Source: Candidatus Bathyarchaeota archaeon (GTDB taxonomy: Archaea; Thermoproteota; Bathyarchaeia; Bathyarchaeales; Bathycorpusculaceae). From it: 64,000 nt of DNA. Location of the stretch: the NCBI GenBank assembly GCA_963767735.1, contig CAVYES010000002.1, positions 192,001 to 256,000 of the forward strand, in the 5' to 3' direction. The position numbers and the translations under genes are program-made. The notes under the pieces are model-generated. The model was not told where the DNA came from. It was given only the letters and a program-made list of their open reading frames with translations, and did no database searches. Positions 6,559-10,859 of this stretch are shown here, one piece after another (position 1 is the first letter of the stretch; each line of letters starts with the position of its first letter).

Positions 6559-6807
6559 GTGATTTCTATGTCTGAACTAAAAAAGGTTACAAAGCAAGAG
6601 CTAGAAGAAAATAACGGAAAAAATGGTAAACCAGCCTACATAGTATACAAAGGAAAAGTCTACGACGTCACGGAAAGCAGTTTCTGGATCGATGGAGACC
6701 ATTTGGGCATGCATCAAGCAGGCAAAGACTTAACTGAAGAATTAGAGATGGCTCCGCATAAGGACGAAAATTTACAGAGAGTAAAGCTGGTAGGCGAATT
6801 AGTCTAA
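6559..6807 (+). CDS. Cytochrome b5-like heme/steroid-binding protein
   Basis: GKVYDVT, HQAGKDLT, APH. Confidence 0.85.
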   Translation: MISMSELKKVTKQELEENNGKNGKPAYIVYKGKVYDVTESSFWIDGDHLGMHQAGKDLTEELEMAPHKDENLQRVKLVGELV

Positions 6808-6902: not shown

Positions 6903-7214
6903 TTAGGCTATGTGAGCTGCGCAATCACGCATAGCATCAAAGACCGGAAGAAATGCTTTCCCCTTCTCAGTTAACGAATACTCAACCCTTGGAGGAACCT
7001 CGGGGAAAACAACTCTTTTTATGACTCCATTTTTTTCCAGCTCTCTGAGGTGTTTTGTGACGGTTTTTGAGTTAACGTCACCCATATTTTTCTGGAGCGC
7101 AGTAAATCTCAGCGTCTGATCTCTAAGGTTCCAAATGATAAACAGATTCCATTTGCTTCCGACGATTTCTACGACAGTTTTAAACTGTGCATGTACTTTA
7201 TTTTCAGATTCCAA
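6903..7214 (-). CDS. HxlR/DUF24 winged-helix regulator
   Basis: GSKW, LRELE, EVPPRVEYSLTEKG. Confidence 0.9.
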   Translation of the reverse strand: MESENKVHAQFKTVVEIVGSKWNLFIIWNLRDQTLRFTALQKNMGDVNSKTVTKHLRELEKNGVIKRVVFPEVPPRVEYSLTEKGKAFLPVFDAMRDCAAHIA

Positions 7215-7335: not shown

Positions 7336-8022
7336 ATGAAGGTTTTAGCGATAAACGGCAGCGCCAGAAAACAATGGAACACAGCAATTCTTCTGAACAA
7401 AGCCCTTGAAGGTGCAGCGTCGAAAGGAGCCCAGACAGAACTCATTCACCTATACGACCTTAATTTCAAAGGATGCACAAGCTGCTATGAGTGCAAGCTA
7501 AAGAATGGAGCATCATTCGGCAGATGTTCCCTTAAGGATGAATTATCAGTTGTGCTTGGCAAGATAGAAGCGGCAGATGCGTTAATTCTCGGAGCGCCCT
7601 TTTATCTGGGAACGATACCTGGCGTAATGAAGTCGTTTCTGGAGCGTTTGGCAACCCCTTATCTTGTTTTAGACGCCGATGATGAGCTGGTTTCCCTCTT
7701 CCCGAGGCAGATACAGACTGGATTCATTCATACCGCGGGAGGCGACGCAAACCATCTGAAAGCTATGAGAGTTGAAAACCACATTAGAAACAATGAGATG
7801 ACCCTGAAAATGATTTTTGGGTCGGTGGAATCCCTCGTAGTTACGGATACGCTTCACGTTGACGACTACTCAAAGTATGTTATGCCTTTTGACGCTGAAG
7901 AAAAAATGAAGAAGCGCAAGGAAGAGTTTCCTCTGGACTGCGAGAAAGCGTTTGAGATGGGCGCTAGACTTACTCAAGAAAAGTCGATCCCGACTGAAGA
8001 AGGCGGTTTACATGAGCGTTGA
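7336..8022 (+). CDS. Iron-sulfur flavoprotein / NADPH-FMN reductase family flavodoxin
   Basis: INGSARKQWNT, GCTSCYEC..C motif; divergent from HxlR. Confidence 0.85.
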   Translation: MKVLAINGSARKQWNTAILLNKALEGAASKGAQTELIHLYDLNFKGCTSCYECKLKNGASFGRCSLKDELSVVLGKIEAADALILGAPFYLGTIPGVMKSFLERLATPYLVLDADDELVSLFPRQIQTGFIHTAGGDANHLKAMRVENHIRNNEMTLKMIFGSVESLVVTDTLHVDDYSKYVMPFDAEEKMKKRKEEFPLDCEKAFEMGARLTQEKSIPTEEGGLHER

Positions 8023-8863
8023 TATCTACTATTTTTCAGGCACCGGCAACTCATTAGTTGTTGCCAGAGATATTGTAGAAAAAACCAATGGAAAACTAAT
8101 AGCAATACCTTCCGTCATGAATAAAGACAAAATAAGAACAGATGCCGAGGCGATTGGAGTTATTTTTCCCGTTCACGGAATTTTCCGCATTCCATCCATA
8201 GTTGAAAGATTTGTTGGGAAGCTAGACAATGCCAATTCAAAGTACATTTTTGCGGTCACCACATATGGAAGTATGGCTGGCGGAGCTGTCAAAAGTTTTC
8301 GCAAAGTGGTCGAATCTCGCGGCGGCAAACTTTCAGCAGGATTCGCAGTACATATGCCGATGAACAACATCACCATACCCTTCATGTACAGTGGAACAGT
8401 TGGAGATAAAGAACAAAAGTTATTCGCACACTGGCGTAAAGAAAGCGGGGTTATTTATGAATACATAAACGTTCGGAAAGAAGGCAAATTTGAAGCCACC
8501 AGCAAGTTGCTCATTTCTTTGTTTTACCCGATTGATAAAATATTTGCGCGATGGCGAATTGAAAGCAAATACAATAAACTTACAAATTCTAATCTAAACA
8601 AAGATGATCTTTGGCCTATGATGGATGTCAGCTTCCATTCTGACGAGAAATGCAACGGCTGCGGAATTTGCTCAAGAATTTGTCCCGTGAAGAACATAAA
8701 AATGGTTGATGGCACGCCTTCGTGGCAGCATCACTGCGAGCGGTGCATGGCGTGTTTGCAGTGGTGTCCGAAGGAGGCTATACAATTTGATAAGGATTCG
8801 ATTGGCAGGAAACGGTATCATCACCCAGATGTAGACCTTTCTGATATGATAAGGCAAAATTAA
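8012..8863 (+). CDS. EFR1-type flavodoxin-ferredoxin fusion
   Basis: YFSGTGNS; two CxxCxxCxxxCP motifs; RYHHP. Confidence 0.9.
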   Translation: MSVDIYYFSGTGNSLVVARDIVEKTNGKLIAIPSVMNKDKIRTDAEAIGVIFPVHGIFRIPSIVERFVGKLDNANSKYIFAVTTYGSMAGGAVKSFRKVVESRGGKLSAGFAVHMPMNNITIPFMYSGTVGDKEQKLFAHWRKESGVIYEYINVRKEGKFEATSKLLISLFYPIDKIFARWRIESKYNKLTNSNLNKDDLWPMMDVSFHSDEKCNGCGICSRICPVKNIKMVDGTPSWQHHCERCMACLQWCPKEAIQFDKDSIGRKRYHHPDVDLSDMIRQN

Positions 8864-8874
8864 ACGAATCTCTT

Positions 8875-10119
8875 CTATTGAGAGATAAATTGAAGCACCG
8901 AATCAAATTGTCCCAAATCACTCATAACATTTTTTATGTCTTTAACGCTTAATGCCTCACGTTTTTTATGCAGTTCACTGATGATTTCGTACACGCAATC
9001 GAAAGCTGTTTTCACGTCTAAATCGTTATTCATGCCCTTCTCGAAAAGAGAAAGGATGGTGCCATTGGTCCCCTCTGTTGTCTTCTCTGCATCGGAATTT
9101 GCTGGTTTTTGATTTTGTAAGTCTTGAACCATGCTTTTAAAGGAGTCCAGTTTTCGGCTAGTTTCAACTAACTTTACGAAGGTGAAGTTTAGCTTTTTTC
9201 TGTATGGTCTATATGTGAGAAAGAACCTTAATTGTTCGCCGCTGAATCCTTTCCCTAAAATATCGCTTGTGTAATACACGTTGCCAGTGCTCTTAGACAT
9301 TTTTTTGCCGTTAATAAAGAGGTGCGCCCCGTGAAGCCAATAACGCGAGAACTGTTTGCCGCTGACAGCTTCTGCAATGGCAAGCGTATAATCGTGGTGT
9401 CTAACTAAATTGTCAATTCCGCCGCAGGCAACATCAATCGTAAAGCCCAGATGCTTAGTTACTATGGCAGCATCCTGAATATTCCACGCTGGCCTACCTC
9501 CTCCAATCGGCGCCACATAGCAAACGGCGTCTTGTTTGCAGCCATCCCAAATAATAAAGTCGCCTCTGTTCCAAGGGGTCCCAGGATACGTGTCCAGATG
9601 GAAGCGGCGCTTCTTTTTTGGCCACTTGCTCATGTCCAAATGCGCCAGTTTTCCAAAACCCTTGAATTTTAGGGGGTCAAAATAAACGTTTTTTGCACCG
9701 TTGTACGTGTACCAGTAGGCGTAGCCCTTCTCTAACAGCTGCACCGTCAATTTTGCTGCTTGGTCTACAGCTGAGGATGCTCTTATCGCGTAGTCTGGAG
9801 TTTTAATTTTTAAGAGCTTGAAGTCCTCGAAGAAGATGATTTCGTTTTTTCTTGTCAGTTCTTCTATGGTGAGGTTTTCTTTTTTTGCCTCTGTTATGGC
9901 TTTGTCTTCTACATCCGTTAAGGTCATTAGGCGGGTAACTTTGTAGCCTAAGTATTCCATGTAGCGTTGAAGCATATCTTCGAAAAGGAAGGTGCGGTAG
10001 TTTCCAATATGCGCTCGCTGATACGTCGATGGACCGCAAGTGTACATTTTAACCTGCATGTCTTCGGCAGGCTCGAATGGCTCAATAGTTCGTGTGAGAG
10101 TATTGTATAAACTCAGCAA
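8875..10119 (-). CDS. Cysteinyl-tRNA synthetase-like protein, truncated, with atypical active site
   Basis: YTCGP, HIGN, KMSKS intact; WHIEC replaced by WNIQD and PHHENE by RHHDYT; 414 aa, no C-terminal anticodon domain. Confidence 0.85.
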   Translation of the reverse strand: MLSLYNTLTRTIEPFEPAEDMQVKMYTCGPSTYQRAHIGNYRTFLFEDMLQRYMEYLGYKVTRLMTLTDVEDKAITEAKKENLTIEELTRKNEIIFFEDFKLLKIKTPDYAIRASSAVDQAAKLTVQLLEKGYAYWYTYNGAKNVYFDPLKFKGFGKLAHLDMSKWPKKKRRFHLDTYPGTPWNRGDFIIWDGCKQDAVCYVAPIGGGRPAWNIQDAAIVTKHLGFTIDVACGGIDNLVRHHDYTLAIAEAVSGKQFSRYWLHGAHLFINGKKMSKSTGNVYYTSDILGKGFSGEQLRFFLTYRPYRKKLNFTFVKLVETSRKLDSFKSMVQDLQNQKPANSDAEKTTEGTNGTILSLFEKGMNNDLDVKTAFDCVYEIISELHKKREALSVKDIKNVMSDLGQFDSVLQFISQ

Positions 10120-10135
10120 TAGATGGCTTCTCCAT

Positions 10136-10612
10136 TTAAGCGGTGACTTGCCCCTCTTTTTCCAGTTCCCTTAGCGTGTTTTTGGCTTCTTCCACATGCT
10201 GTTGAGTTTGAGTTTGGGAATTGAAAATATGCCTGACAATGCCCTTCTTGTCAATTATGTACGTGACTCGACCGGGAACTATGCCCAAGTTTGAGGGAAC
10301 CCCGTATAGCTTGCGGACCTTGTTTCCCTCGTCGCTTAGCAGGATGAAGGGTAAGCTATAATGAGTTGCAAAAGACTTATGCGACTCCACACTTTGCCCA
10401 CTTACCCCAAGCACCTCAGCGCCCAAATTTGTTAGTTCCTCGTAGCTATCTCTGAAACTGCAGGCTTCTCTTACGCAGCCAGTCGTTTCATCTTTAGGAT
10501 AAAAATATAAAACTACATTCTTTTTGCCGAAGAATTCTGAAAGCGTAACATTATCCCCCATTTGAGAGGGAAGCGTGAAATCGGGCGCTTTATCGCCAAC
10601 TTTAACAGACAA
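10136..10612 (-). CDS. bcp: Peroxiredoxin (BCP/PrxQ)
   Basis: [20 protein letters not shown]. Confidence 0.92.
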
Positions 10613-10859
10613 AAAATCACCGATTAATGAAACGTCAGACAGCTATTATTCTTTTCGCATAAGGTTCCGTTAAGTCTTGAGGTGATTACTCTCAGTGTAT
10701 TAACTGACAATGATGACATACGTTTGGAAAGAAAAAAACCTGATTTGGTTTTCAGCAACCTTTTTATTTAGCAAATAGAAAAATCTGTTTATCAGTGTAG
10801 CCATAAATAGAAGAAATCTGCTAGATAGAGCGAGTCGGTTAATCCTGGAGCGATTAAAA

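Follow-up and report, generated by a model that had tools for sequence, protein, structure and literature searches.

A short cysteinyl-tRNA synthetase-like protein family with a rebuilt amino-acid pocket, encoded next to a peroxiredoxin gene in Bathyarchaeia

The locus described here raises the question why an archaeon with a canonical cysteinyl-tRNA synthetase (CysRS) also encodes a second, shortened version of this enzyme directly behind a peroxiredoxin. It lies in a stretch of 64,000 nucleotides (nt) from a Candidatus Bathyarchaeota archaeon (assembly GCA_963767735.1, contig CAVYES010000002.1, positions 192,001 to 256,000), which we refer to as the window. The original prediction, made from the DNA alone, read the gene as a truncated CysRS paralogue lying on the same strand as bcp and 16 nt after it, and the product as an adenylating ligase with a different metal or substrate, possibly tRNA-independent and linked to redox or small-thiol metabolism. 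The list of open reading frames (ORFs) and the sequence confirm this layout and give the paralogue a TTG start codon.

As judged from profile scores, alignments and phylogeny, the protein is a member of an uncharacterised family, sister to CysRS, that is widespread and occurs in anaerobic archaea and bacteria. The alignments define this family by the motifs WN[IV]QD and RHHDY, by a missing C-terminal anticodon domain and by a CP1 loop that is rebuilt and basic. As its function we favour, while rating it somewhat below an even chance, an adenylate-forming, tRNA-independent ligase similar to MshC, which would use a Cys/Asp/His metal site to join cysteine or a near analogue to an acceptor other than tRNA-Cys in the defence against oxidative stress.

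Pocket, fold and status of the paralogue

The zinc ion of E. coli CysRS is bound by C28, C209, H234 and E238. We mapped the residues of the paralogue onto this enzyme (1LI5) by alignment. The residues C28, T68, W205 (W212 in the paralogue), H234 (H241) and H235 are kept together with the KMSKS loop, and the HIGN motif, the α-amino-binding loop and the fold are likewise shared with CysRS (TIGR00435; 1LI5, 1U0B). Two pocket motifs are changed: GWHIEC has become AWNIQD (G204>A211, H206>N213, E208>Q215, C209>D216) and PHHENE has become RHHDYT (P233>R240, E236>D243, N237>Y244, E238>T245). A further change is H224>A231. The motifs thus read as originally described, with two of the four zinc ligands replaced (C209 by Asp, E238 by Thr) and C28 and H234 retained. 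HIGN is common; the genome's own canonical CysRS and most of the representatives carry it as well.

The rebuilt positions are strictly conserved in the family. N213, Q215 and D216 as well as R240, D243 and Y244 occur in 100% of 81 family rows. The sixth residue of RHHDYT varies (V, T, N, S, I, A or L), and the metal ligand at the E238 position is therefore gone in the family. Positions at which family and canonical enzymes are each conserved but different are S31 (canonical Thr), S115 (Thr), F155 (Tyr), N213 (His), Q215 (Glu), D216 (Cys), R240 (Pro), D243 (Glu) and Y244 (Asn). The 98 canonical rows had been picked by a regular expression requiring the canonical motifs; their 100% figures at 213–216 and in part of 240–245 are circular, those of the family rows are not. 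An alignment of 14 members (41–83% identical to the window protein) contains 63 invariant columns, including C28, G29, P30, S31, H37, G39, N40, T68, D69, W212, H241, H242 and KMSK. Strict conservation extends to the ATP motifs, the α-amino-binding residues, the Trp lid and the metal ligands C28 and H241.

In MshC the zinc ion is bound by the cysteine thiol together with C43, C231 and H256, and the α-amino group is held by T46, T83 and the carbonyl group of G44 (PMC9736012). The equivalent residues of the paralogue are C28, D216 and H241 for the metal and S31, T68 and G29 for the α-amino group. The sites for the α-amino acid and for ATP are thus intact, with one thiolate ligand now a carboxylate. 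These changes do not establish the proposed different metal or substrate: C28 and H241 remain, the zinc site of MshC has three protein ligands (PMC9736012), and the cysS cut-off is also passed by CysRS-like proteins that have Asp at position 209. Three such proteins of full length (P0167, P0251 and P0261; 458–462 residues) combine WHIEDT with HHE[CA]EI and score 428–487 bits, so that an Asp at this position alone does not exclude cysteine chemistry. In these three, Asp may serve as a zinc ligand of naturally occurring CysRSs.

The altered metal site also bears on a different function, in which the pyridoxal phosphate (PLP)-dependent cysteine persulfide synthase (CPERS) side activity of CysRS would have become the main one and the enzyme would supply antioxidant persulfides. 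The E. coli variants C28D and C28/209D lose most of their translation activity and keep persulfide production (PMC5660078), and Asp-209 is natural and invariant here. Of the four CPERS lysines, which lie in KIIK (K73, K76) and KMSK (K266, K269) of the E. coli enzyme (Akaike 2017), three are retained (K73, K273 for K266 and K276 for K269), and the antioxidant neighbours described below would suit the role. The fourth lysine, K76, is however not conserved (Thr, Ala, Ile, Leu and the like), and in E. coli each single Lys mutant has strongly reduced activity (PMC5660078); moreover, the mechanism of CPERS is itself unresolved (PMC12926118). The strictly conserved HIGN motif and α-amino residues point instead to ATP chemistry. 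To our knowledge, CPERS has not been reported to need such chemistry. We consider a dedicated persulfide synthase rather unlikely.

The paralogue ends after the helical bundle, as had been predicted. Its match to TIGR00435 spans model positions 1–399 of 466, and the genome's own canonical CysRS continues for 58 residues past its end. The AlphaFold2 model is confident (pLDDT 94.2, pTM 0.93), closes with helices and is weakest in the CP insertion (residues 160–200). Structure prediction thus bears out a CysRS-like fold: in Foldseek, CysRS structures matched with TMq values of 0.84–0.87 (28–30% identity), just ahead of MshC (0.82–0.84, 21–23%). Within the CP domain, C194 and C200 (GC....VC, window region 9520–9540) are invariant in a 21-member alignment of the main clade but not in distant members, and may be a clade-specific redox or metal feature.

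The same genome, which is 94.9% complete, encodes a canonical CysRS (G000:C7:334753-336138) that scores 505.5 bits with TIGR00435 and is 38% identical to the paralogue. The paralogue is hence not the only route to Cys-tRNA, in keeping with its prediction as a paralogue. SepRS and SepCysS, which had been considered as a further route, gave no match above the cut-off in a profile search of the genome. With this canonical enzyme present, the paralogue is not the housekeeping enzyme but an accessory gene beside a normal CysRS. Among 201 genomes of the class, 12 hold the paralogue, and all 12 have at least one further CysRS-level match (matches are listed singly for 10 of them). It is barely credible that the paralogue is simply a standard CysRS through which the cell normally obtains its Cys-tRNA. 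Its best family and structure matches are CysRS, but the window protein (304.5 bits) and four other members (270–316 bits) all fall below the TIGR00435 cut-off of 340 bits that the genome's own enzyme exceeds, the anticodon domain is absent, C209 and E238 are changed, and genome G102 shows a clean deletion of the gene.

Table 1. Features of the bcp–paralogue locus (window positions).
Feature	Position	Strand	Basis
CysRS-sister paralogue, 414 residues	8875..10119	-	PF01406 (CysRS catalytic domain) 1.9e-72; TIGR00435 304.5 bits; AlphaFold2; Foldseek
C-terminal end of helical bundle, no α/β anticodon domain after it	8878..8922	-	profile match, alignment, AlphaFold2 model
KMSKS loop, residues 273–277	9289..9303	-	K273, M274, S275, K276 invariant
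RHHDYT replacing PHHENE (P233>R, E236>D, N237>Y, E238>T)	9385..9402	-	alignment
AWNIQD replacing GWHIEC (H206>N, E208>Q, C209>D)	9472..9489	-	alignment
Rebuilt basic CP1 loop HLDMSKWPKKKRRFHLDTYPGTPWNRGDFIIW	9547..9642	-	family alignment; pLDDT 80–88
HIGN, HIGH-type ATP motif, residues 37–40	10000..10011	-	H37, G39, N40 invariant
YTCGPSTY loop: C28 (kept metal ligand), G29/S31 (α-amino-binding positions)	10021..10044	-	alignment
16-nt spacer with GGAG (ribosome-binding-like motif)	10120..10135	-	sequence inspection
BCP/PrxQ-type peroxiredoxin, 158 residues, C46 and C51	10136..10612	-	PF00578 (AhpC/TSA) 2.4e-39
BRE/TATA-like element, conserved, upstream of bcp	10642..10658	-	conserved block, alignment of 19 upstream regions

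Extent of the family and comparison with known CysRS derivatives

The original prediction had allowed for the case that the substitutions are private to this genome and reflect decay; instead, they occur throughout a family. Exact CGP, HIGN, WNIQD, HHDYT and KMSKS motifs are present in 107 of the 120 closest clusters, and 16 of 150 distant representatives (50% clustering), all with at most 424 residues, carry WN[IV]QD together with RHHDY. A profile of the four most divergent members matched 4088 proteins at E<=1e-80, canonical enzymes counted in, and led to 116 further relatives. CGP, H[ILV]GN and RHHDY are found in all 116 of these and WN[IVL]QD in 113. The NCBI record names among them include Desulfoferrobacter suflitae, Desulforhabdus, Nitrospirota and Spirochaetales, and the family is labelled there only as 'class I tRNA ligase family protein'. 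The record of Desulfoferrobacter suflitae bears no 'MAG' tag. We take this species to be a cultured organism, in which case the function of the family would be directly testable at the bench. A literature search, to which subscription journals were mostly inaccessible, found no paper on this family.

In phylogenetic trees the family forms one clade with 100% SH-aLRT support, separate from canonical CysRS including that of the Bathyarchaeia themselves. The archaeal members form two separate clades among bacterial ones; the order between the clades is not settled by these trees, which are 'quick' searches with SH-aLRT support only. The family profile separates the two groups as well: in a sample of 401 genomes of the phylum, members scored at least 614 bits and canonical enzymes at most 417, and matches at the family level occurred inside the class only. 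The best 80 GTDB loci all came from Bathyarchaeia or from records suspected to be mis-binned, four of them with record names that are neither Bathyarchaeota nor 'uncultured archaeon' (two Acidobacteriota-type, one Methanocella and one more). A restriction of the family to Bathyarchaeia was overturned by the 116 relatives with their bacterial names and by the tree. Related genomes in the samples are non-independent.

The paralogue is under purifying selection and not in decay: dN/dS (the ratio of nonsynonymous to synonymous substitution rates) is 0.08–0.11 in four of six ortholog pairs, with dS saturated in the other two, and throughout the family the motifs are preserved. A duplicate that decays or is catalytically dead would account for the patchy occurrence (12 of 201 genomes) and for broken or partial copies in four of the 29 genomes of the genus that hold the gene, at otherwise syntenic loci. 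Three of these copies have internal stops (G175:C14:55410-56638, G559:C6:14382-15377 and G564:C2:214787-215968), and one is matched over residues 1–196 only (G558:C7:9930-10517). Given the low dN/dS, the catalytic motifs invariant in archaeal and bacterial members alike and the confident structure model, we regard such a duplicate as highly improbable.

A functional precedent is MshC (TIGR03447; 3C8Z, 8HFM), the cysteine:glucosaminyl-inositol (GlcN-Ins) ligase of the mycothiol pathway, which is of the same length (~410 residues), has lost the same domain and shows that an enzyme derived from CysRS can serve thiol and redox defence without tRNA (PMC9736012). The paralogue nevertheless scores only 166.4 bits with the MshC profile (cut-off 485.1) at 21–23% identity. 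MshC keeps a Cys/Cys/His zinc site (PMC9736012), of which the second Cys (C231) corresponds to D216 in the paralogue. By NCBI record names, the family occurs in anaerobic archaea and bacteria and not in Actinomycetota. The 94.9%-complete genome contains no MshA, MshB or MshD above the cut-off (MshA at best 137.5 against 462.5 bits, MshB without a match, MshD 27.6 against 163.1 bits).

GluQRS/YadB, a truncated GluRS paralogue, glutamylates the queuosine of tRNA-Asp; it derives from another parent synthetase, and its likeness to the paralogue is an analogy only. CysRS* of Desulfobacterales (Mukai et al., NAR 2017) shares with the paralogue the missing anticodon domain and a changed CP1 motif (PMC5389517). 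Where CysRS* has PTVS, the paralogue has a different CP1 sequence, and CysRS* adjoins selC* tRNA-Cys(UCA) and selB* (PMC5389517), whereas the paralogue has no adjoining tRNA gene in 85 loci and its genome no tRNA-Sec over the Rfam cut-off; selB* was not searched for. CysRS* has been proposed to charge a dedicated tRNA, which was shown with an engineered mimic, the native enzyme being inactive in E. coli (PMC5389517). Because CysRS* also lacks the anticodon domain, loss of this domain does not prove independence of tRNA. By its profile scores and motifs, the paralogue fails the curated cut-offs and the defining features of both CysRS and MshC and lacks the linkage to a selC*-type tRNA gene that marks CysRS*.

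The CP1 loop is the second rebuilt part of the protein. It carries KKKRR, and W166, P167, R171, H174, T177 and W183 as well as a one-residue insertion (G180) are conserved in the family only. CysRS reads the acceptor stem's first base pair with a CP1 motif at about this position, and CysRS* is mutated there too (PMC5389517); the rebuilt segment may correspond exactly to that motif. The proteins are basic, with a median isoelectric point (pI) of 9.13 (17 rows). The canonical CysRS of the same genome has a pI of 6.12, and the medians are 8.13 for five canonical CysRSs from Bathyarchaeia and 5.85 for 33 other full-length enzymes. Other short CysRS-like groups with a canonical pocket have pI values of 9.7–10.3, and two of them pass the cysS cut-off.

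These properties lead to the alternative that the acceptor is an RNA. The enzyme would be a specialised or back-up synthetase of the CysRS* kind, relying on nothing but the acceptor stem to charge tRNA-Cys or a different tRNA, or it would attach the amino acid to a modified nucleoside, as GluQRS does. The example of CysRS*, with its domain loss, altered CP1 motif and proposed tRNA of its own (engineered mimic; PMC5389517), is in line with this, as are the conserved KKKRR-rich loop in the same area, the high pI of the family and of the other short groups, the retained SC-fold and helical bundle, and a ribosome hibernation factor encoded two genes upstream in some loci. On the other hand, no tRNA gene is consistently found near the paralogue in the 85 loci, MshC has the same domains without binding tRNA, and the canonical CysRSs of Bathyarchaeia are fairly basic themselves. 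Within the same alternative we keep an oxidation-proof back-up CysRS. Canonical CysRS functions in aerobes, so the need for such a back-up is not obvious, and for this reason we rank it below the ligase. Overall, an RNA acceptor seems doubtful to us, but to be taken seriously.

The tRNA searches of the genome fit this assessment only within their scope, as introns leave the tRNA list incomplete and a distant partner tRNA could be missed. ARAGORN found one tRNA-Cys only, and none of 41 matches in an Rfam tRNA scan lies beside the paralogue. A 'tRNA-SeC(tca)' called by ARAGORN with introns allowed (G000:C2:181623-181728) was rejected as a partner. This element (L130:5627-5729, corresponding to G000:C2:181626-181728) lies ~10 kb before the window start and 19 kb from the gene, scores 41.8 bits with the general Rfam tRNA model, a match that has a 39-nt insert. 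Spliced by hand, it reads as a tRNA-Gly(GCC) whose intron of 28 nt sits at a non-canonical site, 29/30, and the tRNA-SeC label is an artefact. A second, intron-less tRNA-Gly(GCC) lies 2.5 kb from it.

Gene neighbourhoods and possible function

In the clade of the window protein, 67 of 80 species loci have bcp immediately upstream on the same strand, mostly at a distance of 0–31 nt. The genus sample comprised 41 genomes, of which 29 hold the paralogue and 26 a bcp orthologue. Both genes are present and adjacent in 25 of them and both absent in 11; the paralogue occurs without bcp in four, one of which retains bcp fragments. C46 and C51 of the bcp product are invariant in 21 aligned orthologues. 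The genome's two other BCP-like matches are only 40–49% identical to the cassette bcp, which is thus a third and specialised copy.

The BRE/TATA-like element upstream of bcp (Table 1) is its putative promoter. As the spacer leaves no room for a second promoter, bcp and the paralogue are likely co-transcribed, and no terminator-like site was found between them on the minus strand. Contigs from RNA libraries (95–99% alike) cover positions 9249–9414 and 9501–9769 of the paralogue and 10319–10556 of bcp, none of the matched contigs spanning the junction; DNA can occur in such libraries, and the matches are a weak hint of expression. A predicted complex of paralogue and BCP, calculated from two alignments, scored 0.00 against a mark of 0.32, which speaks neither way.

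Other lineages have other neighbours. The distant archaeal members are directly followed by DinB (Y-family polymerase) in five of six loci and by carA in the sixth. For bacterial-type members we chose 80 metagenome loci. The ORF caller, which uses the first start codon and prunes overlaps, recognised the paralogue in 76 of these and lost it in four (in L181, for example, an antisense ORF won). A same-strand neighbour within 150 nt is present in 49 of the 76 loci. The 80 partner ORFs include nine AhpC/TSA proteins (eight from the Bathyarchaeia cassette), eight to nine CorC/CNNM transporters, five DinB, three OsmC, two Fe/Mn superoxide dismutases (SOD) and two hibernation factors. In L193 and L194 the SOD gene and the paralogue share an overlap of 4 nt, and in L182 an α/β-hydrolase–OsmC fusion precedes the paralogue at a distance of 43 nt. 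Another set of loci has the order hydrolase–OsmC, hibernation factor with cold-shock domain, CorC, paralogue. The CorC/CNNM-type transporter, which has CBS domains, is found directly upstream in ~10 metagenome loci (L186, L187, L202, L208, L214 and others), often preceded by a hibernation-factor/cold-shock fusion.

That different lineages place different antioxidant or damage-tolerance genes beside the paralogue is better evidence for a role in stress than the bcp linkage alone. Of the predicted link to redox or small-thiol metabolism, the redox part therefore stands, with bcp in the window's clade and OsmC, SOD and DinB elsewhere. The small-thiol part found no support, with MshA, MshB and MshD below their cut-offs and no recurring biosynthetic partner at the metagenome loci. 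The conservation of the bcp linkage itself, foreseen as a check, is evident from the species loci and the genus sample.

A gene that stands by itself in stress contexts, with no pathway partners, could also encode a signalling or regulatory enzyme, which would form the aminoacyl-adenylate only to make alarmones of the diadenosine tetraphosphate (Ap4A) type or would act as a cysteine or redox sensor. Synthetases do make alarmones under stress. No feature of the protein points specifically in this direction, however, and the conserved, rebuilt CP1 loop would be left unexplained, so that we hold this to be very unlikely.

Based on the pocket, the fold and the neighbourhoods we propose the following function for the favoured MshC-like ligase. 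The paralogue would form an aminoacyl-adenylate, most likely of cysteine or a close sulfur analogue bound at the Cys/Asp/His metal site. The acyl group would then pass to an acceptor whose recognition depends on the new CP1 loop and not on an anticodon. Such a tRNA-independent ligation, as in MshC, would yield a cysteine-derived compound that protects under oxidative stress, the window gene being expressed from the bcp promoter as part of a two-gene cassette.

Several points weigh against this function. Both the amino acid and the acceptor are predictions. The high pI and the KKKRR loop suit an RNA as acceptor no less than a small molecule, and the rebuilt metal site is unexplained if the substrate is cysteine, for which MshC keeps Cys/Cys/His. 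No glycosyltransferase, deacetylase or acetyltransferase recurs as a biosynthetic partner beside the gene in the metagenome loci, and neighbours resembling a stress regulon tell when the enzyme acts, not what it makes. In 13 of the 80 species loci the paralogue has no adjoining bcp, and in the genus sample G102 has bcp with a clean deletion of the paralogue. The broken and partial copies in four of the 29 holders could reflect pseudogenisation and dispensability, assembly error in long-read data, or both.

On a wider view, which we offer tentatively as possible but doubtful, the family would be a third functional branch of CysRS after MshC and CysRS*, ancient and present in both domains, whose Cys/Asp/His site and basic loop would serve to make an unknown cysteine-derived protectant or modification. 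Strict anaerobes (Bathyarchaeia, Syntrophobacteria, Nitrospirota and spirochaetes) would deploy it with peroxiredoxin, OsmC and SOD when oxygen appears. Its product could then be a low-molecular-weight thiol of a new kind, a carrier of persulfide or a macromolecule bearing an aminoacyl group. New chemistry has come to light with each of the synthetase paralogues that work outside translation (MshC, GluQRS, PoxA and the cyclodipeptide synthases). Here, a large family with a strictly conserved, rebuilt active site stands beside antioxidant genes, and little is known of the major thiols and the oxygen-defence chemistry of its anaerobic hosts.

Further CysRS-like proteins and genes of the window

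The searches also returned other short CysRS-like groups (P0170, P0179, P0245, P0154 and P0202; 399–417 residues) with differently altered pockets, for example G[NT][AH][IS]YC in place of GWHIEC, WNVQCA with FNHHENTR, or WHIQDT with HHSAQ. P0170, P0179 and P0245 form a clade of their own (100% SH-aLRT). A search of the ESM Atlas gave no functional lead, its matches being limited to MshC and other short CysRS-like clusters. No fusion of the family was present among the 120 best listed matches of 726–2070 residues (at most 39% identity), which is weak evidence. These long proteins are canonical CysRSs fused to a PALP domain or to a family-2 glycosyltransferase (GT2), with the canonical pocket in four that were checked. 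The PALP fusions are numerous (~770 residues; P0286, P0389 and P0271 are among the long fusions), and in P0271 the CysRS motifs begin near residue 326. Two long fusions (741 and 803 residues) consist of a CysRS part followed by the glycosyltransferase.

Downstream of the paralogue, the window encodes an HxlR-family regulator (6903-7214, minus strand), a flavoprotein similar to flavin mononucleotide (FMN) reductases (7336-8022) and, at 7952-8863, a protein whose C-terminal part contains a 4Fe-4S dicluster domain. These genes separate the paralogue from a cytochrome b5-like gene (6559-6807), which comes directly after the paralogue in related loci, so the segment 6903-8863 looks like an insertion of redox genes.

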